Virus record (IMG/VR): IMGVR_UViG_2565956731_000001 | Length of the DNA: 37,002 nt | Source: a virus | Taxonomy: Duplodnaviria; Heunggongvirae; Uroviricota; Caudoviricetes | Strand: one strand, 5' to 3' | Shown: positions 4,803-36,068 of the stretch, in pieces | Layout: every line of letters begins with the position of its first letter | Numbering within the stretch: position 1 is the stretch's first letter | The notes under the pieces: model-generated | Seen by the model: only the letters and a program-made list of their open reading frames with translations | Databases searched by the model: none | What the model was told of the DNA's origin: nothing | Made by a program: the position numbers and the translations under genes

Positions 4803-7213
4803 GTCATGCCGATATGAACAACTGCTGCGGCTTTAACGAAGCTGCCGCATCGTTCTCATGGAACAGCTCGAAAAAGGCCATTAACCCTTATCTGGACCCG
4901 GTGGAAGTTGCGCCGGTTTCTACGCTTTCAAACCTGATCACTCTGTACGCTGCCGATAACGAGCAGGAACAGCTGCGCCGTGAGGCGCTGAGTGATCAGG
5001 TCTGGGAGCGTTATTTCTTTAATGAATCCCGTGATCCTGTCCAGCGCGAAATGGAACAGGATAAGCTCATTAGTCGGGCAAAGCTGGCGCATGAGCAGCA
5101 GCGTTTTAATCCGGATATGGTCATTCTGGCGGACGTCAACGCCCAGCCTTCCCATATCAGCAAGCCGCTGATGCAACGTATTGAATACTTCAGCAGCCTG
5201 GGCAGGCCAAAGGCTTATTCCCGCTATTTACGTGAGACGATTAAGCCATGTCTGGAACGACTGGAGCATGTACGCGACAGTCAGCTATCTGCATCTTTTC
5301 GCTTTATGGCAAGCCATGAAGGGCTGGACGGCCTGCTGATCCTGCCTGAAATGAGTCAGGATCAGGTGAAACGCCTGTCCACCCTGGTAGCTGCGCATAT
5401 GAGTATGTGCCTTGATGCCGCTTGTGGCGATTTGTATGCCACCGATGACGTTAAGCCAGAAGAAATCCGCAATACATGGGAAAGGGTGGCAGCGGAAACC
5501 CTGCGTCTGGATGTCATCCCGCCTGCGTTTGAGCAACTCCGTCGGAAAAGAAACCGCCGTAAACCCGTGCCCTATGAACTCATTCCGGGTTCGCTGGCGC
5601 GTATGTTGTGCGCCGACTGGTGGTATCGGAAATTATGGAAGATGCGTTGCGAATGGCGGGAAGAGCAGTTGCGTGCTGTCTGCCTTGTCAGCAAAAAAGC
5701 ATCTCCCTATGTCAGCTATGAAGCCGTGTTGCATAAACGTGAGCAGCGCCGTAAGTCGCTGGAGTTTTTCCGTTCTCATGAACTGGTGAACGAAGACGGC
5801 GACACGCTAGACATGGAGGATGTGGTAAACGCCAGCAGCAGCAACCCTGCGCATCGCCGCAATGAGATGATGGCCTGTGTTAAAGGTCTGGAGCTTATCG
5901 CGGAAATGCGCGGTGACTGCGCCGTTTTCTACACCATCACCTGTCCGTCACGTTTCCATTCCACGCTAAATAACGGCAGGCCCAACCCGACCTGGACAAA
6001 TGCGACGGTAAGACAAAGCAGCGATTATCTGGTCGGTATGTTTGCTGCATTTCGTAAGGCGATGCACAAAGCCGGGTTGCGCTGGTATGGCGTGCGGGTG
6101 GCTGAGCCGCATCACGACGGCACAGTTCACTGGCACCTGTTGTGTTTCATGCGCAAAAAAGACCGCCGCGCCATTACAGCATTGTTGCGTAAGTTTGCTA
6201 TCCGTGAAGACCGCGAGGAGCTGGGCAATAACACGGGGCCGCGCTTTAAGTCTGAGCTGATTAACCCGCGCAAAGGAACGCCGACAAGCTACATAGCGAA
6301 ATACATCAGTAAGAACATTGATGGGCGTGGTCTGGCTGGCGAGATCAGCAAGGAAACGGGTAAATCTCTGCGTGATAACGCTGAATACGTGAATGCCTGG
6401 GCGTCTTTGCATCGTGTTCAGCAATTCCGCTTCTTTGGCATTCCGGGGCGTCAGGCTTACCGTGAACTGCGATTGCTGGCTGGTCAGGCGGCAAGGCAAA
6501 AGGGGGACAAAAAAGCAGGTGCGCCGGTACTGGATAACCCGCGCCTTGATGCCATCCTGGCTGCTGCTGATGCTGGTTGTTTTGCCACCTACATCATGAA
6601 GCAGGGCGGCGTACTGGTTCCCCGTAAATATCACCTCATCAGAACCGCTTATGAAATCAACGAAGAGCCGACCGCCTATGGCGATCACGGCATTCGTATT
6701 TATGGCATCTGGTCACCCATTGCAGAGGGCAAGATCTGCACTCATGCAGTGAAGTGGAAAATGGTTCGTAAAGCCGTTGACGTTCAGGAGGCGGCAGCCG
6801 ACCAGGGCGCTTGCGCCCCTTGGACTCGTGGCAATAACTGTCCCCTTGCTGAAAATTTGAACCAACAAGGGAAAGACAAATCAGCTGATGGGGATATCAG
6901 AACGGACATTACCCGCATGGATGACAAGGAGTTGCACGAATACCTGCACAGTATGAGCAAAAAAGAGCGCCGGGAACTGGCTGCAAGGTTACGCCTGGTG
7001 AAACCGAAACGGCGTAAAGACTACAAACAGCGAATTACAGACCATCAGCGACAGCAGCTCGTCTATGAACTGAAGTCCAGAGGATTTGATGGCAGCGAGA
7101 AAGAGGTCTATTTACTCCTTCGTGGCGGCAGTATTCCGTCAGGAGCAGGCCTGCGTATCTTCTATCGGAACCAGCGTTTGCAGGAAGATGATAAGTGGCG
7201 GAACCTGTATTAA
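4799..7213 (+). CDS. A: Replication initiation endonuclease gpA (rolling-circle initiator)
   Basis: 804 aa; conserved YIAKYISK active-site tyrosine region; position after the early operon. Confidence 0.9.
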
Positions 7214-7305
7214 TTACGCGGGTTAACAATTCGTGCTCTTAATAATACCAGGCATTTCAGGCTGATGAACGTAAAAAAACGTTTTACATCAGTAAGATTA
7301 TTATA

Positions 7306-7325
7306 TACTGTAAATATAAACAGTG
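7306..7325 (+). promoter_or_regulatory. LexA box (SOS operator) TACTGTAAATATAAACAGTG
   Basis: Matches the CTGT-N8-ACAG consensus (CTGT 7308-7311, ACAG 7320-7323) with AT-rich spacer; about 40 bp upstream of the 7366 ORF. Confidence 0.7.
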
Positions 7326-7365
7326 GTTATGTATACAGTATTGCTTTGGTGTCATAGGAGGAAAG

Positions 7366-7554
7366 ATGCAGGACTATTTTTTGGAGTCTTTGAAGCTCCA
7401 GCGCATTGATTTTTTTCTTAAGCTTGTAGCGGCTAGTGAGTGTAGTGATGAAGAGAAGGGGCTGGCTCTGCAGTGGGTATCTGAATTGACTGATGAACTC
7501 ATGGCAAAAATCAGAACCCACGAATACAACCGCTCAATGGATGTCATCAGTTGA
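7366..7554 (+). CDS. Small SOS-controlled protein (possible N-terminal part of a Tum-like antirepressor)
   Basis: ATG 7366 with AGGAGG RBS immediately downstream of the LexA box. Confidence 0.5.
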   Translation: MQDYFLESLKLQRIDFFLKLVAASECSDEEKGLALQWVSELTDELMAKIRTHEYNRSMDVIS

Positions 7555-7564
7555 GGTGACTTTT

Positions 7565-7798
7565 ATGCGCATTGAAATAATGATCGATAAAGAGCAGAAG
7601 ATTAGCCAGTCTACCCTGGACGCCCTTGAATCCGAGCTTTACCGCAATCTGCGCCCCCTGTATCCCAAAACGGTAATTCGCATTCGCAAAGGTAGCTCTA
7701 ACGGTGTGGAACTAACCGGACTGCAACTGGACGAAGAAAGAAAACAAGTGATGAAAATTATGCAGAAGGTGTGGGAAGACGACAGCTGGCTGCATTAA
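7565..7798 (+). CDS. DinI-family protein (Tum-like antirepressor domain / SOS modulator)
   Basis: Translation MRIEIMIDK...KVWEDDSWLH aligns by eye with E. coli DinI (MRIEV...QETWESADDWF); ATG 7565 after GAGGTGA. Confidence 0.65.
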   Translation: MRIEIMIDKEQKISQSTLDALESELYRNLRPLYPKTVIRIRKGSSNGVELTGLQLDEERKQVMKIMQKVWEDDSWLH

Positions 7799-7930
7799 GA
7801 AACGTTGCTGGCGTCTGAACTTGCTTCTGGCGTCAGCAAGGTTGAACAACGAGCCCTTGCGAGGCGTTAGCTCTGTAGTGCATGTCTATGCCGCATGAGA
7901 TCGCATGATCGTTTGAGGATCGTTTTTGCT

Positions 7931-7958
7931 AAGGCCCGCCAGAACTGGCGGGCTTTTG
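7931..7958 (+). terminator. Rho-independent terminator of the SOS module
   Basis: GC stem GCCCGCC(7934-7940)/GGCGGGC(7947-7953) followed by TTTT. Confidence 0.6.
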
Positions 7959-8002
7959 CGTAGATCATGCAGGTGCATGAAAACCACTACATAAAGCGGG
8001 CA

Positions 8003-8021
8003 GGCGTGGCGGGGATACGAG
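8003..8021. other. Candidate cos site (19-nt cohesive-end sequence)
   Basis: GGCGTGGCGGGGATACGAG followed by CGCGCGCTGA resembles the P2 left end GGCGAGGCGGGGAAAGCAC TGCGCGCTGA as recalled from memory; lies between the A-side genes and Q as in P2. Confidence 0.45.
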
Positions 8022-8212
8022 CGCGCGCTGAAAAGGTTTAGCTAAATTTTTGTCGATAGGTGGTTTTAGTTGTTATACAAAAGTGTCACTGGTTTTGTTT
8101 TGAGCATTTGTGGTGCTAAAAATATTTTTTTTGGTTCAAAATTACCTTAAAAAGGTTTTTTTGGTGTATGATTGTTTGAAAAGTGGTTCGGTTTTGCCAT
8201 AAGGGTGGTTAG

Positions 8213-9295
8213 ATGATAAACGTTACAAACGAAATGCTCATTGATGTTGTCAGTGATGCTCTTACCGGGAAGAGGGAAAGTCTCCTCATGCGGTTGCGGA
8301 TTATGGCAAAAAAACTAAAAAAAGAATCTCCTGAATTAGCGGGTAAATTAGAAGATTTACTTATTAATACAGGTGGCGCAATTGCAGTCGAAAGGGCTAA
8401 TCCAGTTGTTCCTAAAATAACACCTGTTGATGCGGATACAAGACAAAAGCTGCTAGTTGAAACATATCCTGTGGTCATTGATGTTGAACCTGTTTGGCCA
8501 ACAAAAACTGATGTTCAACTGAATCGATTTGTGGCTGAGTGGGAAATGAAAGAACGCCTTTATAAAGAAGGGTTGCATCCGTCCAAATCTCTTCTTATGG
8601 GAGGACCACCCGGTGTGGGGAAGACTTTGGCTGCAAAGTGGCTCGCTTTTAAACTCGATATGCCATTGTTAACATTAGATCTCGCAAGTGTAATGAGTAG
8701 CTACTTGGGGAAAACGGGTAATAATATTAAGGCAGTCCTCAATTATGCTTCGTCATTCCCTTGTGTACTGCTTCTTGACGAATTTGATGCGATTGCTAAA
8801 AAAAGGGATGATGCAACAGATGTTGGAGAACTAAAAAGATTAGTTACAGTATTATTGCAAGCAATTGATGAATGGCCAAATACGTCTGTTCTTATAGCAG
8901 CAACTAACCATGCGGAGCTGCTTGATCCTGCTGCATGGAGAAGATTCGATCGAGTTATTGATTTTGAATATCCAACACAAGACCTAATGAGAAGATATCT
9001 CTGTTCTAAAAATATTGGAGATAGCTTATCGTACTATATTGCTACAAAACTCGAAAAAGTTTCATATGCAGTTCTTGAGAGAGCTATAAATCAAGCTAAA
9101 AGAAATGCCATTATAGAAGATATTCCTTTAAGTTCAGCTTTAATTGATGAGTTGTTAGATGGCGTGTCACTTGATGATGTTATAAAAAACATGTCAAACA
9201 ACAATGTATCACAAAGAAAAATCGCTTTAGATTTGGGGATTTCAAGGTCACAAGTACGTAAGGTTTTGACGGTTGAGGATGAAGACAATGAATGA
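8213..9295 (+). CDS. AAA+ ATPase (classic AAA clade), cargo gene
   Basis: Walker A GGPPGVGKT, Walker B LLLDEFD, sensor/Arg region ATNH...RRFD; AT-rich by eye; RBS AAGGGTGG before ATG. Confidence 0.85.
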   Translation: MINVTNEMLIDVVSDALTGKRESLLMRLRIMAKKLKKESPELAGKLEDLLINTGGAIAVERANPVVPKITPVDADTRQKLLVETYPVVIDVEPVWPTKTDVQLNRFVAEWEMKERLYKEGLHPSKSLLMGGPPGVGKTLAAKWLAFKLDMPLLTLDLASVMSSYLGKTGNNIKAVLNYASSFPCVLLLDEFDAIAKKRDDATDVGELKRLVTVLLQAIDEWPNTSVLIAATNHAELLDPAAWRRFDRVIDFEYPTQDLMRRYLCSKNIGDSLSYYIATKLEKVSYAVLERAINQAKRNAIIEDIPLSSALIDELLDGVSLDDVIKNMSNNNVSQRKIALDLGISRSQVRKVLTVEDEDNE

Positions 9296-11480
9296 TAAAA
9301 ATATGCTTCTTGGCTATGGTGAAACACTAACTAACCCTGTTAAACTTAACAGAGGTGGAGGTGAAAAGAATAAACCTTACTCTTATTCAGAAAATAAACC
9401 AGTGATATCTGCTCAACTGGAAGAGTTGATTGAGGAAATTAATACCCTTCCATTGTTAGCAATGCCTGAAGGTAAGGCTGTAGCAAAATTTGTTTTGCAT
9501 CCGGCATTCTTAGCAAAAAGTTATTTTCCAGTAAGTCTTTTTGAGCGATTTTCCCTAGAAAGCATAGGCAGTAAGGCTGTAAAAGTAAAACCTAGAAAAG
9601 ATATTAAAAAAAGAGGGCGAAAAGAGGAATACACTACAGCGTGTATTTATGTTTCTGGCAAAAAAGAAAGTTTTCAATCATTCTTAGACTCTGTAAATCA
9701 AGATACCCTAACGAAAGGGCAGCAAAATGATTTTGTCACCTTAGAAAATATTTCAATACTGGAAGTTTCAGATAAAGTAAAAACGATTAATAGCAATGAA
9801 GTTATGAGTATTGAGGTCGCCTTACATACTCCTGATACAATTTCCTCTATTGTCGATAGTTTTGAAGTTTTTGCTTCGCAAAATGGTGCTGTTATAGATA
9901 AGGCAAGAAGTATAAAGGTTAAGGGGCTAACCTTTATGCCTATTAAGGCTAGTAAAGATGTAGCTTTAAAAGTTGCAGAGTTTTCATTTCTCAGGACTTT
10001 GAGAGAACTTCCTGAATTAAGGCTAAGTGAGCCTGTTATATCACGTTCTGTGATTCAAACATCTAACCTTAGTTTACCATCTGAAGGAGCGGTAAACCCA
10101 CACATAAAGGTTGCCATATTCGATGGTGGATTGGGGATCGATGATTTCAATCCTTGGGTAACAGAGTACACTTTCAACGGTAATGCTAGTACTAATGCAA
10201 AACTTCTTTCTCATGGACAGGATGTCACCTCTACTGTGTTATTTGGTGTTCTTGGCTCTGAAACGGAAAAATTAAGTGTTCCTTATTGTAATATTGACCA
10301 TTATCGTGTACTGGATTCTAATGTTAATAACTCAGATGTCGATCTTTTTGACGTTCTGATCCGTATTAAAAGTGTATTAGAACAAAAAAAATATGATTAT
10401 ATCAATCTGAGCTTAGGACCTAGATTACCTGTTGATGACGATGACGTGCATGTGTGGACCTCAACTCTTGAGGAGATACTTGCATCAGGAGAAACACTTT
10501 GTACTGTCGCGGTTGGAAATGATGGTCAGCTGCCTGCCAAGTTAAATCGAATTCAACCACCTGCTGATTTAGTTAATGGTCTGTCAGTAGGTGCAGCAAC
10601 CTCTTTATCTGATAGTTGGGAAAGATGTTCTTACAGTTGTATTGGTCCTGGACGAAGCCCTGGCTTTGTGAAGCCTGATGGAGTTGCATTTGGAGGACAT
10701 TCTGATGAGCCATTCCAGGTATACAGCCCTATGGTTAATGGTCTTGCCCGCACTGCGGGGACTAGCTTTTCAGCTCCATTAGTCCTGAGGCAAGCAATCG
10801 CGTTAAGTGCTTCTCTAAATTACAACATTACACCACTTACGGCTAAAGCTCTGCTTATACATCATGCGGAGAGCAATAATATCAATCGTGCTGAAGTTGG
10901 TTGGGGACGATTTCCTCATGATCTTAGTGAAGTAATATTTTGTGATGATGATGAAGTTAAAGTTATATATCAAGGTACTTTAAAACCATCACAACACATG
11001 CGAGCACCTATTCCGTTTCCAGATGTACCTATGCGTGGATGTGTAAATTTAAGAGCGACATTCTGCTTTTCCAGTCCTGTAGATGCGGAACATCCTTTGA
11101 ATTATACAAGAAGCGGTCTAGAAGTAACCATGAGAAAAGGTGTTTCAGATAGTTCCGGGTTAACGTTTCCTCTTTTTAATCTAAAAAATGTTTATGCAGA
11201 TGAAAATGAGCAACGTGTTGATGCACATAAATGGGAGACTACGTTAAGAAGTGAACACAAATTTAAACCGAATGAGCTGACAAACCCATGCTTTGATATT
11301 ATCTACTATGGTAGAGACTGTGGTATGCCTATTGATGTTGACGAGTTAGAAGAACTACCATATGTTCTTGTCGTGACTTTATCTGCTGAAGAAATGCCGG
11401 ATTTATATAACCTAATTAGGCAGAAATATCAAACCTTACAGCCTATCCAAGTTCAACAGCAAATTATGTTACGTACTTAA
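9288..11480 (+). CDS. Subtilisin-like serine peptidase (S8 family) with N-terminal domain of unknown function, cargo gene
   Basis: Catalytic triad motifs in D-H-S order: VAIFDGGLG, SHGQDVTST, GTSFSAPLV; start overlaps the ATPase stop by 8 bp (alternative ATG 9279). Confidence 0.8.
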   Translation: MNDKNMLLGYGETLTNPVKLNRGGGEKNKPYSYSENKPVISAQLEELIEEINTLPLLAMPEGKAVAKFVLHPAFLAKSYFPVSLFERFSLESIGSKAVKVKPRKDIKKRGRKEEYTTACIYVSGKKESFQSFLDSVNQDTLTKGQQNDFVTLENISILEVSDKVKTINSNEVMSIEVALHTPDTISSIVDSFEVFASQNGAVIDKARSIKVKGLTFMPIKASKDVALKVAEFSFLRTLRELPELRLSEPVISRSVIQTSNLSLPSEGAVNPHIKVAIFDGGLGIDDFNPWVTEYTFNGNASTNAKLLSHGQDVTSTVLFGVLGSETEKLSVPYCNIDHYRVLDSNVNNSDVDLFDVLIRIKSVLEQKKYDYINLSLGPRLPVDDDDVHVWTSTLEEILASGETLCTVAVGNDGQLPAKLNRIQPPADLVNGLSVGAATSLSDSWERCSYSCIGPGRSPGFVKPDGVAFGGHSDEPFQVYSPMVNGLARTAGTSFSAPLVLRQAIALSASLNYNITPLTAKALLIHHAESNNINRAEVGWGRFPHDLSEVIFCDDDEVKVIYQGTLKPSQHMRAPIPFPDVPMRGCVNLRATFCFSSPVDAEHPLNYTRSGLEVTMRKGVSDSSGLTFPLFNLKNVYADENEQRVDAHKWETTLRSEHKFKPNELTNPCFDIIYYGRDCGMPIDVDELEELPYVLVVTLSAEEMPDLYNLIRQKYQTLQPIQVQQQIMLRT

Positions 11481-11487
11481 CAATGTG

Positions 11488-11510
11488 GAGGGGTTCCCCC
11501 TCCTTTATTA
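11488..11510. terminator. Bidirectional terminator between the cargo operon and Q
   Basis: GGAGGGG-TTC-CCCCTCC hairpin followed by TTTATT; flanked by convergent genes. Confidence 0.6.
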
Positions 11511-11518
11511 AGCTTTAT

Positions 11519-12568
11519 CTATGTTGATTGTGGGTCATCGTTTATTAAGTTATATTTTTCAAAATGGATAATATTAATTCCTAACCATTCATTAAATTCC
11601 TGTAATCGTTTTTGTAAAGGCATTAATTCATTTCGAACAAACACTCGACTCGCCTTCTCTACATCTCCAAATCCTCCAACATTACTTGGCATAATCCCCA
11701 TCATTTGCGGCGGCACACGGTGTGCCGCCATCATGTCGTCTCGGCTCACGTTCTTGATGTTCAGAAATTCATCCTTCGCTGCGACTTCTGACAGCGGGAT
11801 GATCTGAAGCCCGTCCTTTTTGCCGTTAGGCGAGTACATAAACAGGTTGCGGAAGTTGCCTGGACCTTTGGCGCTTTTCATCGCGTTGCGGAGGTTGTTC
11901 ACATCTTCCTGGTTCTGCGCGGCGTCGGTCATATACATGATGAAGCCAGCATGACTGCCGTTAATGTAATACTTTCGACGGAACAGCGTGGCGGACTCAT
12001 TGAGCAGGGCGGACGGAATGGCAGAAAGATAGCCGGGCAAGCCGTAGATCTCCTGGTTAATGTCCGGTTCCATCAGATGAAAAATGCTGCCTTTCGTGAA
12101 CTGATATGGCTGGGTTGTCATACCGTATTGCACAAACCAGTAGGTATCCAGGTCTAACCCGCGTCGGGTGTATTTTGCCAGCGCAGGCTCAAGGGCGATA
12201 ACTTCACCGAAGCGGTTCGTGCGTTTCTCCAGGTAGGCGTTACCAAAAACCAGATAGTCCTGCACAAAACGCGAAAAAGCCTGCTGGCTGAGCAGCGGGT
12301 GAGGGATGTAGGTGCTGGTCAAAATGTTGCATTTCACCGCAATCGGTGAGCTGTGATGCACGGCGGCGCGGAAGGTTCGTGCCAGTCCGTCAAAGCTGAC
12401 GGGCGGCTCATACCAGCGATCCATCTGTACGCATTCCACATAGTCCAGCAGTTCGCGGCGGTCCAGAACAGGAACGGGATCACCGAAGCTGAATGCTTCG
12501 GCTGAAGTCTGGCTTTTATGCTGGTTCTGGTTCGTCGACGCAGCGCGGTTCTTCTTACTCTTTCCCAT
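11519..12568 (-). CDS. Q: Portal protein gpQ
   Basis: About 349 aa, P2 Q-like length and position; first gene after cos, transcribed toward it; ATG 12566-12568 with GGAG upstream. Confidence 0.85.
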   Translation of the reverse strand: MGKSKKNRAASTNQNQHKSQTSAEAFSFGDPVPVLDRRELLDYVECVQMDRWYEPPVSFDGLARTFRAAVHHSSPIAVKCNILTSTYIPHPLLSQQAFSRFVQDYLVFGNAYLEKRTNRFGEVIALEPALAKYTRRGLDLDTYWFVQYGMTTQPYQFTKGSIFHLMEPDINQEIYGLPGYLSAIPSALLNESATLFRRKYYINGSHAGFIMYMTDAAQNQEDVNNLRNAMKSAKGPGNFRNLFMYSPNGKKDGLQIIPLSEVAAKDEFLNIKNVSRDDMMAAHRVPPQMMGIMPSNVGGFGDVEKASRVFVRNELMPLQKRLQEFNEWLGINIIHFEKYNLINDDPQST

Positions 12569-19318: not shown

Positions 19319-19451
19319 CGGTGATCTGAACGCGTTGTTGGATGAAACGGAGGCCGCCTGGGCGGTCTGTGCAGACAAAGTGGACATGATTATTGCGTGT
19401 CAGGAGCGAAACAGTGAACAAACCACAATCCCTGCGCCACGCCCTCAATAA
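19161..19451 (+). CDS. lysC: LysC, Rz1-like outer-membrane lipoprotein spanin
   Basis: Starts inside lysB in another frame (GTG after GAGGA), lipobox LTLSGC, Pro-rich C-terminus. Confidence 0.65.
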   Translation: MRTRIYAAGLILLCLLTLSGCGNVRHSPEVQLIVSGCPRVTPCRLDQAAPRTNGDLNALLDETEAAWAVCADKVDMIIACQERNSEQTTIPAPRPQ

Positions 19452-19845
19452 AGCTGTGCCTTATGTCCGCAATAACCCGGACAAACTGCATCTGTTTGTG
19501 GATAACGGTTCGCTGGTTGCCACGGGGGCCAGCTCCATGTCATGGGAGTACCGTTACACCCTGAACGCGGTGATTGAGGATTTCAGCGGCGACCAGAATC
19601 TGCTGATGGCCCCGGTTTTGCTGTGGCTGAGGGATAACCAGCCCGATGCAATCAATAACCCGGTGTTACGGGAAAAGTTATTCACCTTTGAGGTGGATAT
19701 TTTGCGCAACGATGTCTGTGATATCAGCCTTAACCTGCAACTGACGGAACGTGTGCTGGTCAGCACTGACGGCACTGTGTCCAGCGTTGAAGCTGTAGCG
19801 GAACCCGATGAACCTGAAGAAATGTGGACGGTGAAACGAGGCTGA
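19414..19845 (+). CDS. R: Tail completion protein gpR
   Basis: Aligns by eye with P2 R (FVDNGS..., TERV...); GTG 19414 after CAGGAGCG (the track's TTG at 19393 is less likely). Confidence 0.75.
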   Translation: MNKPQSLRHALNKAVPYVRNNPDKLHLFVDNGSLVATGASSMSWEYRYTLNAVIEDFSGDQNLLMAPVLLWLRDNQPDAINNPVLREKLFTFEVDILRNDVCDISLNLQLTERVLVSTDGTVSSVEAVAEPDEPEEMWTVKRG

Positions 19846-19855
19846 ACTGCAGAAG

Positions 19856-20290
19856 GTGGACGACTGGCTGAGTGCTTTGCTGGCGAATCTGGAACCAGCC
19901 GCAAGAAGCCGAATGATGCGCCAGCTGGCGCAGGAACTGCGCCGGACACAGCAGCAGAATATCAGGATGCAGCGCAATCCAGATGGCAGCAGTTATGAAC
20001 CGCGCAGGGTAACAGCACGCAGCAAGAAGGGGCGCATCAAACGTCAGATGTTTGCAAAGCTGCGCACCACCAAATACCTGAAAACCGCCGCCAGCGCCGA
20101 CTCTGCCAGCGTGCAGTTTGAAGGTAAGGTGCAGCGCATTGCGCGGGTTCACCATTACGGCCTGCGTGATCGCGTCAGTCGCAAAGGACCGGAGATCCGT
20201 TACGCAGAGCGCAAATTGTTGGGTTTCAGTTCAGTTTCAATAAACGTAGTCCATGATATTATATATTCGTGGATATCCAATTTAGATTGA
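19856..20290 (+). CDS. S: Tail completion protein gpS
   Basis: 144 aa in P2 S position; last ~20 codons lie in AT-rich sequence at the cargo junction. Confidence 0.75.
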   Translation: MDDWLSALLANLEPAARSRMMRQLAQELRRTQQQNIRMQRNPDGSSYEPRRVTARSKKGRIKRQMFAKLRTTKYLKTAASADSASVQFEGKVQRIARVHHYGLRDRVSRKGPEIRYAERKLLGFSSVSINVVHDIIYSWISNLD

Positions 20291-20297
20291 AAGTTTG

Positions 20298-20327
20298 AAA
20301 TGGCAGATGCTCTGCCATTTTTTTATT
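20298..20327. terminator. Bidirectional Rho-independent terminator between S and the cargo gene
   Basis: AATGGCAGA-TGC-TCTGCCATT hairpin with flanking A-run and T-run. Confidence 0.6.
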
Positions 20328-21079
20328 TAGATACTGAGATTTTTTTTACATAATAGTATAAATTCACAGTACATGTTATAGATTTTAGTCGCACATCCGT
20401 TAGCTTTTTTTATGGTTTCTATCTTTTCAGGGGGGAGGCTCAATAAGGCAATCTCTCTGTCGCTGAGCATTGAAATAAACTCGCTGCTGCCTAAATACCC
20501 GGAGTTGCAGGCTAAAAAATAATTAAAGTTAGTTAACTCTTTGTGTAGTTCGTTAGATTTTATTTCTATTTCATTATCATGAAAATGATGTATGGCCTTT
20601 CCCCATTCATGGCAGTATGTTGTCATGTCTTTAAGGTTTGAGTCATGAAATCTATTGCCAAAGTCATGGCTTTTTAGAAAGTCTATTGAGTTTGAATCTG
20701 GTGGTAATAATTTTATAAACTCTTTATATAGATTAATGTCAGAGTTCCTTTGTCTTTCTTTCTTTTCTCTGTTTTCTTTAATTTTAATACTGTCAAAGAA
20801 CCATTCTGGCACTTTACTTAATAAGTTATAGGTTAACCCCAAAGCAATTAGAGTGATGGCTACCATCGTGCTTGGATTACCATTATCTATTTTTATTATA
20901 TCAATATCTGCATTGAATTTTTTATTATATATATCAATTATAAAATTAAGTGCCATGAGATAATATGGAATTGGTAGCGCAATTATGCTTAGCCCAGTTA
21001 TAACTAAAGCCCAAGTTATTTTATTACTAAACTCAGGAAATATTACATTGATTATTTTTTTAACAATATACTTTTTCAT
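20327..21079 (-). CDS. Membrane protein of unknown function, cargo at the S/V (P2 orf30-equivalent) locus
   Basis: 250 aa, very AT-rich by eye; two N-terminal TM helices; K/E/N/D-rich C-terminal soluble domain; antisense to flanking late genes. Confidence 0.7.
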   Translation of the reverse strand: MKKYIVKKIINVIFPEFSNKITWALVITGLSIIALPIPYYLMALNFIIDIYNKKFNADIDIIKIDNGNPSTMVAITLIALGLTYNLLSKVPEWFFDSIKIKENREKKERQRNSDINLYKEFIKLLPPDSNSIDFLKSHDFGNRFHDSNLKDMTTYCHEWGKAIHHFHDNEIEIKSNELHKELTNFNYFLACNSGYLGSSEFISMLSDREIALLSLPPEKIETIKKANGCATKIYNMYCEFILLCKKNLSI

Positions 21080-21107
21080 TACTTAACTCCCTGAAAAATA
21101 TCCTAAT

Positions 21108-21125
21108 TGTGCCATGATTCATACA
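21108..21125. promoter_or_regulatory. Ogr-type late promoter dyad (TGT-N12-ACA) upstream of V
   Basis: TGTGCCATGATTCATACA about 50 bp upstream of the V start. Confidence 0.5.
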
Positions 21126-21171
21126 TTTTTATCTACTGGTTGATAATGTGTGGGGGATTTATGTTAGTGAC

Positions 21172-21750
21172 ATGAACGCACAGCTAACTGAAATCATGCG
21201 CCTTATCACCAACCTGATCCGCACAGGGGTTGTCACCGAAGTAGACAGGGAAAACTGGCTTTGCCGGGTGAAAACGGGCGACCTTGAAACCAACTGGATT
21301 AACTGGTTGACGCTGCGTGCCGGGAATGCCCGCACATGGTGGCGACCATCGGAAGGTGAGCAGGTGGTGCTGCTGAGTCTGGGCGGCAATCTGGAAACTG
21401 CCTTTGCGCTGCCCGCTGTCTATTCGAATCAGTTCGCACCACCGTCGACGTCGGCAGACGCCTGCGTGACAGAACATCCTGACGGTGGCTGGTTTGAATA
21501 CGAACCCGCCACCGGGCGCTGGTATGTCAGGGGCATCAAATCAATGGTCATTGAGGCCGCTGACAACATCACCATGAAAACCAGTGAGTTTGTACTGGAG
21601 GCTGACCGCACGCGCATTAACAGCGAAGTGGTGATCAATGGTGGCGTTACCCAGGGCGGCGGAGCGATGAGTTCTAACGGGATCGTGGTTGATGCGCATC
21701 AGCATACTGGCGTCCTGAAAGGCGGCGACACCACCGGAGGCCCGGTATGA
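21172..21750 (+). CDS. V: Baseplate spike/assembly protein gpV
   Basis: Aligns by eye with P2 V from MNAQLTE (IRTG..VTEVD, WWRPSEGEQV); ATG 21172. Confidence 0.85.
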   Translation: MNAQLTEIMRLITNLIRTGVVTEVDRENWLCRVKTGDLETNWINWLTLRAGNARTWWRPSEGEQVVLLSLGGNLETAFALPAVYSNQFAPPSTSADACVTEHPDGGWFEYEPATGRWYVRGIKSMVIEAADNITMKTSEFVLEADRTRINSEVVINGGVTQGGGAMSSNGIVVDAHQHTGVLKGGDTTGGPV

Positions 21751-25028: not shown

Positions 25029-25481
25029 GTGATTTATATGAACGAATATGTTTATAGCGCAAGGCATAATGCTTTTTTCCCTGTGGATATGATTGATAAA
25101 TATAAATCAGAGGGATGGGATTTATCAGACGCAAAGGAAGTAAATCAAAATATTATCAGTGAGTTTATGGCTGAACCGCCACAAGGAAAAATCCGTATTG
25201 CCGGAGATGATGGGCTGCCTGCGTGGGCAGATATTCCTCCACCCACGCATGAAGAGCTTATTGAAATTACTGAATCAGAAAAACAGCTACTAATTAACCA
25301 GGCTAACGAATACATGAACAGTAAGCAATGGCCTGGCAAAGCAGCTATTGGTCGTCTGAAAGGTGAGGAACTGGCGCAATATAATTTGTGGCTGGATTAC
25401 CTGGACGCACTGGAACTGGTGGATACCTCCAGTGCTCCAGATATTGAATGGCCTACACCTCCGGTAACTCAGGCCAGCTAA
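25029..25481 (+). CDS. Tail fibre assembly chaperone (Tfa, expressed orientation)
   Basis: 150 aa immediately after H; N-terminus MIYMNEY... typical of Tfa/gpG. Confidence 0.75.
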   Translation: MIYMNEYVYSARHNAFFPVDMIDKYKSEGWDLSDAKEVNQNIISEFMAEPPQGKIRIAGDDGLPAWADIPPPTHEELIEITESEKQLLINQANEYMNSKQWPGKAAIGRLKGEELAQYNLWLDYLDALELVDTSSAPDIEWPTPPVTQAS

Positions 25482-25848
25482 TCTCAGGAGCCGTCGAAGT
25501 GTCGACGGCTTTTACTTCTTTTTTGTAGTCCATCCAGGCAGATAGTTTTTCTTTATCTGTACTGCTGATATCACCAAGCATTAATTCCACCCGCCAGTCA
25601 GCTGTGACATTATCGGCATGAGCAAGTAACTGCATTCGCTGATTTTCAGCACGTGCGACATAATCAATCGCCGGAGATTTCAGTACCGGTAAACCATTTT
25701 CATCTGACGTGATTAATTTACCCCCTTCCTGCTGTCCGGCAATTAATTCATTGTATAAGTCTGTACTTATCTCAACAATGTCAGCAGGCATGTCGCTGTT
25801 TATACCATCAAAGAAAAAACCATTAGTCGATTTTGAGAAATAAATCAT
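25453..25848 (-). CDS. Alternative tail fibre assembly chaperone (silent orientation)
   Basis: Minus-strand ORF with Tfa-like N-terminus MIYFSKSTNGFF; convergent with and overlapping the expressed tfa. Confidence 0.65.
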   Translation of the reverse strand: MIYFSKSTNGFFFDGINSDMPADIVEISTDLYNELIAGQQEGGKLITSDENGLPVLKSPAIDYVARAENQRMQLLAHADNVTADWRVELMLGDISSTDKEKLSAWMDYKKEVKAVDTSTAPEISWPELPEV

Positions 25849-25856
25849 AGATATAC

Positions 25857-26190
25857 CTATACACCGATTGCTACCCAAAAACAGGACCTTTCATATTTGA
25901 CAATTTCTCCCTGAGATATACCGCCAACAATTATATAGAACTGTGATTTGCTGATATCAGAACAGTTCGCTATGCCCATTGCAGATATACCAGCCACCGA
26001 CGTTGTATGTGGCACAGCCAACAGCGCAAGTGAACGATTTGGGAATGTTACCGGGTAAGTCACCGTATAGTTTGATGCTCCACTGACAATACCCCACTGA
26101 ATAATCAGACCTGAAGGAAGTTTTTGAAAACCCGTTGATGAAAGTGAACTGGCAAACGCCGCCATATCCGGAATTTGGTTTTGCCCGTTA
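25857..26190 (-). CDS. Alternative tail-fibre C-terminal coding segment (silent cassette, no own start)
   Basis: Minus-strand frame begins with [19 protein letters not shown] matching the H crossover region, then diverges. Confidence 0.65.
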
Positions 26191-26224
26191 CCTACATTCC
26201 GTTTTGCCGCTTCTCCCAAACCAA
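26191..26224. repeat. Right inverted repeat of the invertible segment
   Basis: Perfect reverse complement of 24644-24677. Confidence 0.8.
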
Positions 26225-26291
26225 CGTTTATGAAAATGCAGAGATAATGGCTAACTGGCATCATCCCCGGTTTTTATTCAGGGGGATGATC

Positions 26292-26858
26292 ATGCTTATT
26301 GGCTATGTACGCGTGTCAACAAATGACCAGAACACCGATTTGCAACGTAATGCACTGAACTGCGCGGGATGTGAGCGGATTTTTGAGGACAAAATCAGTG
26401 GCACAAAGTCCGACAGACCAGGGCTGAAAAAACTGCTCAGGACACTAACGGCAGGAGACACTCTGGTTGTCTGGAAGCTGGACAGGTTGGGGCGCAGTAT
26501 GCGGCATCTTGTTACGCTGATAGAAGAGTTGCGCCAGCGTGGTGTGAATTTCCGAAGCCTGACTGACAGTATTGATACCAGTACCCCAATGGGCCGTTTC
26601 TTTTTTCATGTCATGGGTGCCCTGGCTGAAATGGAACGCGAACTGATAGTTGAACGTACCAGGGCGGGGCTGGCTGCAGCTCGTGCTAAAGGCAGAGTAG
26701 GTGGACGCCGTCCTAAGTTGACCACCGAACAGTGGGCACAGATTGGACGTTTACTCGAGGCCGGAGAATCAAGACAGCGTATTGCACTGATTTTTGATGT
26801 GGGTGTTTCCACAATTTATAGAAAATTTCCGGCAAATAAGAGCAATGAATCCCCCTGA
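26292..26858 (+). CDS. Serine-recombinase DNA invertase (Pin/Gin/Hin/Cin family)
   Basis: N-terminus MLIGYVRVSTNDQ with catalytic Ser; C-terminal HTH; aligns by eye with e14 Pin; ATG 26292 after AGGGGGATG; directly adjacent to the invertible segment. Confidence 0.9.
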   Translation: MLIGYVRVSTNDQNTDLQRNALNCAGCERIFEDKISGTKSDRPGLKKLLRTLTAGDTLVVWKLDRLGRSMRHLVTLIEELRQRGVNFRSLTDSIDTSTPMGRFFFHVMGALAEMERELIVERTRAGLAAARAKGRVGGRRPKLTTEQWAQIGRLLEAGESRQRIALIFDVGVSTIYRKFPANKSNESP

Positions 26859-34382: not shown

Positions 34383-36068
34383 TTATCCTAATCCTGGCCA
34401 TACCATGACGATGATTGTCCCTGCCAGCGTCAGCAGGACGTTGGCGATTGCATAGGTGCCCGCATAGCCCAGCGCCGGGATGTTACTGCGAGCTGTATCA
34501 CTGATGATCTCCATTGCCGGCGCGCAGGTGCGTGCGCCCATCATTGCGCCGAACAACAGTGCGCGGTTCATTCGCAATACATAAGCACCGAACAAGAAAC
34601 AGATAACCACTGGCACAAGACTGACAATCAATCCGGCAATCAACATCTGACCGCCAATCGCGCCCAGGCCGTTATTAATACCGCTACCGGCGCTCAGACC
34701 AACGCCTGCCATAAACACCATTAAGCCGAACTCTTTCACCATGCTTAATGCACCCTGCGGAATGTAACCGAAGGTCGGGTGGTTAGCGCGCATAAATCCC
34801 AGCATAATTCCGGCGAATAACAACCCGGCAGCGTTCCCCATGCCGAAACTGAATGTGCTGAACTGGAAGGTGATCATCCCGATCATCAGCCCAATAACAA
34901 AGAAGGCGCAGAATGCCAGCAAGTCAGTGACCTGGCTGTGAATCGAGATAAAGCCGATGCGATCGGCGATGGTTTTTACGCGACGGGCATCGCCGCTGAC
35001 TTGTAAAACGTCACCTTTGTTAAGCACGACGTTGTCATCTATCGGCATCTCAATCTGGCTACGAATGACGCGGTTAAGGAAGCAACCGTGATCGGTCAAC
35101 TTCAGTTGTGCGAGACGTTTGCCCACGGCGTTATGGTTTTTAACGACCACTTCTTCAGTGACGATACGCATGTCGAGAAGGTCACGATCGAAAACTTCTT
35201 TGCCGTTACGGAAGCTGGGATCGAGTCGTGCGTGGGCGTCGGGATAGCCTACCAACGCTATTTCATCGCCCATTTGTAGCACAGCATCACCGTCTGGATT
35301 CGCCAGAATCCCGTTACGTCGAATACGTTCAATGTAGCAGCCAGTTTGTCGATAAATACCCAGTTCACGCAGATTTTTGCCGTCGGTCCAGGCCACCAGC
35401 TCCGGGCCGACGCGGTAGGCGCGGATCACCGGTAAATAAACCTTACGGTTGGCATCAGTGTCCAGGCCACGTTCGCGGGCGATTTGCTGGGCGCTGGTCT
35501 GTAAGTCCTGATGCTGCAATTTCGGCAAGTAACGCGCACCAACAATCAAACTCACCAGACCGATTAAATAGGTTAAGGCATACCCGAGGCTCAGATTATC
35601 CAGTGCCAGTGAGAGCTGCCTGCTTTCCATGCCGGAATGACGCAGTGTATCGCCAGCACCGACCAGAACCGGTGTCGACGTCATAGAGCCAGCTAACATA
35701 CCGGCCGTCAGGCCAATATCCCAGCCAAACAGCTTACCTAACCCTAAGGCGATCACCAGCGCACTGCCAACCATCACCAGTGCTAACATTAGGTAATTTT
35801 TCCCATCGCGAAAAAAAATGGAAAAAAAGTTCGGTCCGGCTTCGACCCCGACGCAGAAAATAAACAGCATAAAGCCAAGATTAAGCGCGTCGGTGTTAAT
35901 GCTGAAATGTTGTTGGCCTAATAACAGCGATACGACTAAAACGCCAATGGAATTACCCAGTTGGATCGAACCAAGTCGTAATTTCCCGAGACATAGCCCA
36001 AGCGCGAGGACCACAAATAATAACAGAATGTAATTCCCATTTAACAATTCGGCGACGTTTATATTCAC
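34383..36068 (-). CDS. ybjL: Putative transport protein YbjL (YidE/YbjL family)
   Basis: 561 aa; translation recognised as E. coli YbjL ([16 protein letters not shown]...); GTG start. Confidence 0.9.

Follow-up and report, generated by a model that had tools for sequence, protein, structure and literature searches.

The window, that is, the whole 37,002-nucleotide stretch of DNA analysed here (IMG/VR virus record IMGVR_UViG_2565956731_000001), contains a complete P2-like prophage, with genes for integrase, a CI-type repressor, A, Q–P, O–N–M–L, lysis, R, S, V, W, J, I, H, tail proteins and D. Between gpS and gpV, on the minus strand and thus antisense to its neighbours, lies a gene (20327–21079) for a 250-amino-acid protein that is predicted to consist of a two-transmembrane (2TM) anchor and a helical cytoplasmic domain. 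We propose that this cargo gene is a moron at the S–V (orf30) site and that it encodes a stand-alone defence protein of the abortive-infection type, in which a membrane effector is combined with a cytoplasmic sensor; we would put the probability of this proposal at about 0.45. The original prediction, drawn from the letters of the window, had described a 250-amino-acid antisense open reading frame (ORF) splitting the R-S-V-W-J block and had suggested a single-gene defence or exclusion factor. Coordinates, ATG start and length proved exact, the flanking genes were identified by Pfam, and the functional suggestion gained support from fusions of the C-terminal domain with TIR, CAP12-TIR, Schlafen/AlbA_2 and HNH domains and from the lack of a conserved partner gene.

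The C-terminal domain of about 145 amino acids (residues 105–250; 20330–20767, minus strand) is proposed as the sensor or regulatory module on the basis of its AlphaFold model, its conservation and its fusions. When a hidden Markov model of residues 105–250 was used to collect relatives, and the N-terminal architectures of 140 representatives were classed, the domain was matched end to end behind TIR_2 (P0092, P0148), behind a CAP12/Pycsar-type TIR (P0079, P0108, P0117, P0143), behind Schlafen/AlbA_2 (SLFN_AlbA_2) in P0104, behind HNH in P0147, and behind many unrelated segments with one or two transmembrane (TM) helices. Altogether, 63 of the 140 N-termini have one TM segment, 36 have two and one has three, while 20 are soluble (at least 80 amino acids) and 20 are short. 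The membrane module, too, is portable: in P0132 and P0140, the 2TM module (FPDFxNKxTW...G), which is 43% identical to that of P0008 over about 110 amino acids, is joined to an unrelated, unannotated C-terminal domain. What emerges is the architecture of a single-protein effector–sensor, with the C-terminal domain occurring with alternative effectors and the 2TM module with an alternative C-terminal domain. Since interchangeable membrane, NADase-type and nuclease-type partners are a hallmark of effector–sensor proteins, the role of sensor or regulator would fall to the constant domain and that of effector to the 2TM module; because some fusions are soluble and have no TM segments, the C-terminal domain presumably works in the cytoplasm.

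The size of the family became apparent when 1.84 billion representatives were searched exhaustively with a profile, which returned 465 proteins at E ≤ 1e-3 and 80 at E ≤ 1e-10, whereas a word-indexed search had yielded no more than three clusters (100, 76 and 50% identity). With 465 family representatives, the cargo protein is, as far as sequence similarity can tell, not an orphan. Full-length relatives (about 250 amino acids, 25–32% identical) are present in Vibrio, Aeromonas, Photobacterium, Shewanella, Xenorhabdus, Proteus, Pseudomonas, Methylomonas, Salmonella and Enterobacter; all of them are named 'hypothetical protein', and none is Pfam-tagged. The cytoplasmic domain had been said to contain no recognizable motif, and the cargo protein indeed gave no significant match in Pfam, NCBIfam, PHROGs, PADLOC or the PDB, its sole PADLOC match being to a DRT model with an E-value of 0.037 over 45 residues. 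The full-length relatives P0006, P0010 and P0055 had no PADLOC match, a tblastn search with the cargo protein against 50,697 phage records (P2 included) produced no match, and the literature searched contained no mention of WP_000833215, the E. coli NC101 version of the protein. The protein family and its C-terminal domain are therefore undescribed in every library searched; hotspot cargo and effector–sensor single proteins are, as such, already familiar.

The topology of the protein was examined by hydropathy, charge distribution and structure prediction, all of which agree with the two N-terminal TM helices and charged cytoplasmic domain that had been recognized in the initial reading. The membrane hairpin (20816–21019, minus strand) is made up of TM1 (residues 21–50 approximately, with a kink at P36/P38), a short neutral loop and TM2 (residues 71–88 approximately). 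Because clusters of Lys and Arg precede TM1 and follow TM2 while the loop between them is neutral, both termini are predicted to be cytoplasmic, the C-terminal part of the protein being charged; the predicted periplasmic loop is only about 20 residues long. An AlphaFold model based on a 3-sequence alignment was unusable (predicted local distance difference test, pLDDT, of 43), and the model considered here was therefore built on a 144-sequence alignment (mean pLDDT 90.3, predicted template modelling score 0.73). It begins with a short amphipathic helix, followed by a hydrophobic region (residues 20–55; helices 20–34 and 39–55) kinked at P36/P38, a loop of about 15 residues and a 54-residue helix (71–124), in which TM2 runs into a charged stalk. 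For the remainder (residues 130–248), the model shows, at a pLDDT of about 98, a compact domain of helices that includes a small beta element.

A motif FPEFSNKxTW is conserved ahead of the TM hairpin, together with N19, K20, W23 and G29. The consensus of the C-terminal domain can be written as D..LF..F...LPS......FL..HDFG.SF ... W..AE..F.D..LE ... LN..A, and its conserved residues are D114 (97%), N227 (86%), H138 (78%), D139 (74%) and E172 (74%), along with W159 and F166. Only D114 and F166 exceed 90%, and conservation otherwise mostly concerns the hydrophobic core, so that the alignment, in which a strict catalytic constellation is not apparent, fits a binding or regulatory domain. The 'HD' in HDFG raised the idea of an HD-phosphohydrolase, which was discarded considering that H138 and D139 are conserved in only about 75% of the sequences, that the H...HD...D pattern is not present and that no match to an HD-domain fold was obtained.

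That the cargo gene is real and under purifying selection follows from several observations. By arithmetic on base composition, the chance of an open frame of 250 codons in DNA with 30% guanine plus cytosine (GC) is roughly 1e-9; the pairwise ratio of non-synonymous to synonymous divergence (dN/dS) among alleles is 0.11–0.26, and the length of the alleles is kept at 250–254 amino acids while their identity is 43–76%. The gene was described from the start as strikingly AT-rich, and this is borne out, as about 30% GC is found inside a late-gene block of about 57% GC: GC is 0.25–0.36 over 20200–21150 against 0.54–0.60 in the flanks, and the ORF has a GC of 0.304 and a third-position GC of 0.307, compared with third-position values of 0.59–0.63 for R, S, V and W. 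AT-richness might be taken as a sign of recent insertion. However, every allele has 30–36% GC within backbones of 53–61% GC, even though synonymous divergence between alleles is saturated, and low GC must therefore be a stable trait of the gene rather than a mark of recent arrival.

At the DNA level, the cargo gene is 99.7% identical to its counterpart in E. coli NC101, whose product (WP_000833215.1) bears the annotation 'hypothetical protein'; the frame is intact in the window and in 15 near-identical genomes. Within the species, the family is rare: among 5,426 complete E. coli genomes, 20 have this allele group (carriers include NC101 and NGF-1) and 15 have other alleles. It should be mentioned that in the closest genomic copy, that of E. 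coli strain 1105 (NZ_CP023388.1), one nucleotide is missing from a GGG run at codon 23/24, and RefSeq annotates a shortened 228-amino-acid protein; either the frame is truly shifted there or the assembly is at fault. In E. coli STIN_95 (NZ_CP054965.1), the match to the cargo region is split in two by an annotated transposase gene of the IS1 family.

The position of the gene is constant in P2-like phages. In all 18 P2-like loci collected (14 IMG/VR contigs, the two reference genomes of Pseudescherichia and Buttiauxella, one metagenomic prophage and one further E. coli prophage), the cargo gene is antisense between S and V. The most divergent of these loci, a 42.7-kb IMG/VR contig whose cargo protein is 28% and whose gpS is 39% identical to those of the window, has about 4 kb between the cargo gene and gpW and no detected gpV match, which points to extra or different content at the site. 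Outside the S–V interval, a family member with 40% identity occupies a P2-type ogr–CI/integrase cargo site in two metagenomic contigs (L007, 6001–6798; L008, 1303–2100); an HNH_2 gene follows 380 nt past the family member of L007, and in L008 a 52-amino-acid ORF stands between the two. A distant member lies beside a type I restriction–modification system and an insertion sequence (IS) element, an Aeromonas member is part of an islet with CAP12-TIR, FRG and DUF4747 genes, a member reduced to the C-terminal domain has as neighbours the genes for a Gabija-like OLD-TOPRIM ATPase, for a UvrD helicase and for an integrase, and yet another belongs to a small integrase/Arc element. No partner gene is conserved across the contexts inspected, and the cargo gene therefore appears to work alone.

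The interval between S and V had been regarded as a variable locus, and the survey of its occupants agrees, having revealed empty sites and PARIS-like, TIR, GmrSD and DUF6216 cargos. The sample consisted of 42 E. coli matches spanning the whole 5.5-kb query, and 32 of them have the length of an empty site. Four other cargos, each verified to lie between S and V (L014–L017), are an AAA ATPase with DUF4435 (the PARIS domain pair), a TIR protein, which is in sense orientation, GmrSD, and DUF6216, which is also found in BL21; FRG, PcfJ and DUF262 are listed under other matches, whose placement between S and V was not individually verified. The S–V interval is thus a hotspot of presence, absence and replacement between core genes, and its other occupants are defence-type genes. 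The orf30 region has been listed among the three regions of P2-like phages that contain foreign genes (PMC3091744), and an uncharacterized ORF is present at this position in phage R18C (PMC6823313). Recent papers on P2 defence hotspots centre on the A/Q and Z/fun sites, or group the S–V site as 'within the tail genes / downstream of GpL' (PMC9122126, PMC9519451, PMC13586616); in the passages searched, neither the S–V site as a defence hotspot in its own right nor the present protein family is treated.

The left border of the exchangeable cassette lies inside gpS. The last 26 codons or so of this gene (20213–20290, plus strand) form a cassette-specific, AT-rich 3' end, as judged from DNA divergence, GC and the cargo-specific tails: from about 20213 on, the DNA of S departs from that of the empty-site and other alleles, and GC is 0.29, while the encoded tail is still inside the Phage_tail_S model. 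The gpS proteins of the loci compared (L003, L004, L014–L018) are nearly identical up to ...LLG, and their last 21 residues or so are specific for each cargo, the empty allele included. The last 20 codons or so of gpS had been thought to lie in the AT-rich insert and to replace the native end of the gene. The tail is indeed AT-rich and divergent, but the same border is shared by every cassette, including the empty one, and the changed 3' end of S is therefore no scar peculiar to this insertion. Considering the cassette-specific gpS tails and the fact that most cassettes have their own V promoter, recombination borders would fall inside S and just upstream of V; on sequence comparison, the exchangeable unit begins within the 3' end of S, stops just short of the ATG of V and carries its own copy of the V promoter.

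On the S side, the gene is bordered by an intrinsic terminator (20297–20328, plus strand), identified by a terminator scan, by folding and by reference to the P2 annotation, in which the O-operon terminator is located at the equivalent place. It is composed of a hairpin (20297–20321; −14.5 kcal/mol, z = −3.7 on the plus strand) followed by a T-run, and is expected to end the R–S (O operon) transcript. The terminator had been described as bidirectional, which is only partly justified: the same hairpin forms on the minus strand (−14.4 kcal/mol), 5 nt past the cargo stop codon, but there it lacks a U-tract.

The other border is a divergent control region of 92 nt (21080–21171), which holds the V late promoter and measures about 92–93 nt in all the alleles compared. 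Within it, an Ogr/delta-type activator dyad of the TGT-N12-ACA type, TGTgccatgattcatACA (21108–21125, plus strand), was recognized from its pattern and from its position across cassettes. Alignment with annotated V genes indicated that V begins with the ATG at 21172 rather than with the GTG (21148) of the mechanical ORF list; the centre of the dyad is located at −55.5 from this ATG. The same distance is found in P2, where transcription of V is annotated to begin at its start codon and the activator site has its centre at −55.5 from that point. The identification of an Ogr-type promoter dyad of V at this border, already made in the original prediction, is thus supported by a geometry identical to that of the P2 site and by a position that is kept across cassettes. 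Out of eight cassette types compared, seven have the TGT-N12-ACA dyad at −55.5 (once −56.5), the eighth being P2 itself, whose imperfect activator site does not match the N12 pattern. It should be noted that in the window the pattern is no rarer than chance (8 found, 9.7 expected), and the significance of the dyad therefore comes from its fixed position across cassette types and not from the rarity of the pattern. A −10-like TATGTT of the V promoter is present at 21160–21165.

The same region must serve the cargo gene. Its Shine–Dalgarno sequence, GGAG (21087–21090, minus strand), was read 7 nt before the ATG, and AAGG/GGAG-like motifs are found at the same place in other cargo alleles. As the cargo ATG is 28 nt from the activator dyad and the spacer measures 92 nt overall, any cargo promoter must overlap the V late promoter. 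The candidate on the minus strand has a −35 TAGATA (21135–21130), an 18-nt spacer and a −10 region TGn-CACAAT (21114–21106). The conserved TGGCACAAT beside the dyad was considered as evidence for a cargo −10 element; this argument is weakened by the presence of the ACAA(T) flank in sense-oriented and empty cassettes as well, and the conservation of the candidate promoter is partly explained by the activator site itself. Binding of the activator might switch the antisense cargo gene off in the late phase of the prophage's own cycle.

The locus had been called equivalent to that of P2 orf30. This holds for position and architecture, which show the same succession of S, terminator, antisense gene, activator site and V, and not for the gene itself. 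P2 Orf30 (NP_046770.1, 261 amino acids), which is annotated as non-essential, shares with the cargo protein the S–V slot, the antisense orientation, a similar size and, as flanking signals, the O-operon terminator and the PV activator site. However, it belongs to no Pfam family and has no detectable homology to the cargo family (hhalign with the 144-sequence profile, probability 0.15%, E 0.39). Homology to Orf30 was accordingly dismissed, and the resemblance is positional only.

Broader parallels can be drawn with the cargos of the known P2 hotspots (old/tin at A–Q, and Z/fun; Rousset 2022, PMC9122126; Vassallo 2022, PMC9519451; NAR 2026 survey, PMC13586616). They share with the present locus a short, AT-rich, swappable cassette between core genes, and neighbouring S–V alleles carry, like those sites, validated defence types (PARIS-like, TIR, GmrSD). 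The differences are the S–V location and a protein that matches none of the systems described there.

The arrangement of the protein invites a further comparison. Membrane effectors with a sensor domain are a feature of defence systems based on signalling, such as PycTM of Pycsar, the 2TM effectors of CBASS and the TM-CARF proteins of type III CRISPR. The cargo protein resembles them in having an N-terminal TM module and a C-terminal cytoplasmic domain, and in that one sensor alternates between TM, TIR and HNH effectors. It differs in being encoded by a stand-alone gene with no signal generator nearby, and its C-terminal domain, predicted to be a new all-helical fold, has no match to SAVED, cNMP, STING or CARF.

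From the position, borders and polymorphism of the gene, the predicted topology and fold of its product and the modular sharing of both its domains, we infer a mechanism that extends from expression in the lysogen to protection. The cargo protein would be made in the lysogen from its own promoter, located in the 92-nt region shared with the V late promoter, and its N-terminal two-helix hairpin would insert in the inner membrane, leaving both termini in the cytoplasm. The helical C-terminal domain of about 145 amino acids, held on the long stalk helix, would act as sensor or regulator. On infection by another phage, this domain would detect a phage product, or a change induced by the phage, and as a consequence the membrane module would be released or would oligomerize. 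The module would then harm membrane integrity, so that the infected cell would die or stall before progeny could be released.

Some observations weigh against this proposal. The cargo protein and its relatives match no known or candidate defence model in PADLOC-DB v2.0.0 (2023); some of the chromosomal relatives are found in ordinary neighbourhoods (e.g. beside an ABC transporter or, in another case, beside SPL/glucosaminidase genes); the sole candidate sigma-70 promoter of the cargo gene is weak, with 8 of 12 consensus matches, and falls below the threshold of the scan; and the gene keeps to the S–V site across backbones whose gpS proteins are only 39–60% identical, which could mean that the function is tied to the biology of P2-like phages. 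The last point leads to a role other than defence, be it lysogenic conversion or phage housekeeping (envelope, lysis timing, tail assembly), and the proximity of lysis and tail genes, together with the occupation of the S–V slot in all 18 P2-like loci, very divergent backbones included, would fit such a role. Yet the slot is empty in most of the sampled full-length E. coli matches (32 of 42), the gene is antisense to the late operons, the P2 gene of the same slot, orf30, is annotated as non-essential, and relatives occur outside phages in restriction–modification, Gabija-like and TIR neighbourhoods, all of which makes a housekeeping or conversion role rather improbable. That the gene is a passenger, silent or in decay, which at present serves no function in this prophage could be argued from the 1-nt deletion at codon 23/24 in strain 1105, from the IS1 in the interval of another genome and from the low consensus score of the promoter. 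Considering, however, the intact frame in the window and 15 near-identical genomes, the low dN/dS (0.11–0.26) and the constant length of 250–254 amino acids across alleles that are 43–76% identical, we regard this as very improbable indeed.

Two further explanations retain an antiviral function and differ in how it would be exerted. In superinfection exclusion, the cell is spared, and a membrane protein acts at the inner membrane against DNA injection by the incoming phage or against its receptor function; T4 Imm, P22 SieA and HK97 gp15 (the last cited in PMC10884400) are examples. The cargo protein resembles these as a small inner-membrane protein from a prophage moron, its orientation antisense to the late genes makes expression in the lysogen plausible, and about 100 of the 140 family representatives are membrane-anchored. 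No sequence relationship to them was detected, however, as no PHROG family was matched, exclusion-protein families included; the predicted periplasmic loop has only about 20 residues; and the conserved, portable part of the family is the cytoplasmic C-terminal domain, which is shared with enzymatic fusions and occurs also on soluble TIR, HNH and Schlafen proteins acting inside the cell. Exclusion is thus an unlikely explanation, and abortive infection is favoured because the C-terminal domain is fused to cytoplasmic enzymes. Alternatively, the protein may be the orphan effector of a signalling pathway of the CBASS, Pycsar or Thoeris kind, whose C-terminal domain would bind a second messenger made elsewhere and whose TM module would kill the cell. 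The set of partners of the domain (TM, TIR, CAP12/Pycsar-type TIR, HNH) is the same as that of CBASS and Pycsar effector modules. On the other hand, none of the contexts inspected shows an adjacent gene for a cyclase or for another producer of a signal, neither Pfam nor PADLOC gave a SAVED, cNMP-binding, STING or CARF match, and the domain is predicted to be all-helical, unlike those alpha/beta sensors; an orphan effector seems, on balance, quite unlikely.

As regards the genes around the cargo, the upstream core genes are gpR, a tail completion gene (19393–19845, plus strand; Pfam P2_Phage_GpR, 1.2e-45), and gpS, for tail completion or virion morphogenesis (19856–20290, plus strand; Pfam Phage_tail_S, 8.1e-39). 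The start of gpS was compared with that of its relatives, all of which have a canonical GTG at the position corresponding to 19838–19840. This triplet reads GAG in the window owing to a T-to-A change at 19839 that is synonymous in the overlapping gpR frame, and the next in-frame start is the GTG at 19856, six codons downstream; translation of gpS might be affected by the change, which might also be no more than an error in the sequence. Downstream, the baseplate spike gene gpV (21172–21750, plus strand) was identified by Pfam (Phage_base_V plus Apex) and by alignment to annotated V genes, and the next core gene, gpW, was also identified by Pfam.

Elsewhere in the prophage, the A/Q (old–tin) hotspot carries the known defence pair IetAS (8213–11480, plus strand) within an AT-rich stretch from about 7200 to 12000. 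IetA (8213–9295, plus strand) was recognized by PADLOC (6.7e-84) and Pfam (AAA), and IetS (9273–11480, plus strand) by PADLOC (4.9e-48) and Pfam (Peptidase_S8). At the H/G and Z/fun position (25029–26858), a DNA invertase (Resolvase and HTH_7; 26175–26858, plus strand) adjoins, on the minus strand, an alternative tail-fibre C-terminus (25857–26264) and a second tail-fibre assembly gene (25453–25878), beside G (25029–25481), and the whole looks like an invertible host-range segment. A permease gene with Asp-Al_Ex and TrkA_C domains (34383–36068, minus strand) presumably belongs to the host chromosome past the end of the prophage.

A wider reading of these data, which we advance somewhat more tentatively, is that the C-terminal domain is an undescribed phage-sensing module with interchangeable effectors (2TM, 1TM, TIR, CAP12-type TIR, HNH, Schlafen), and would define a new family of single-protein immune sensors that is widespread in Gammaproteobacteria and also occurs outside them. 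As part of the same reading, the S–V interval would be a fourth, uncharacterized P2 defence hotspot, whose cassettes are swapped together with the last 21 codons or so of gpS and a private, Ogr-dependent V promoter.

If the cargo protein does defend its host, the catalogue of bacterial immunity would gain a new sensor domain, and the natural swaps between membrane, TIR, HNH and Schlafen effectors would help to find what the C-terminal domain senses. The gene has just 753 bp and is present in tractable strains such as E. coli NC101 and NGF-1. The S–V (orf30) slot would then be a working defence hotspot of P2-like phages, beside the well-studied old/tin and Z/fun sites.

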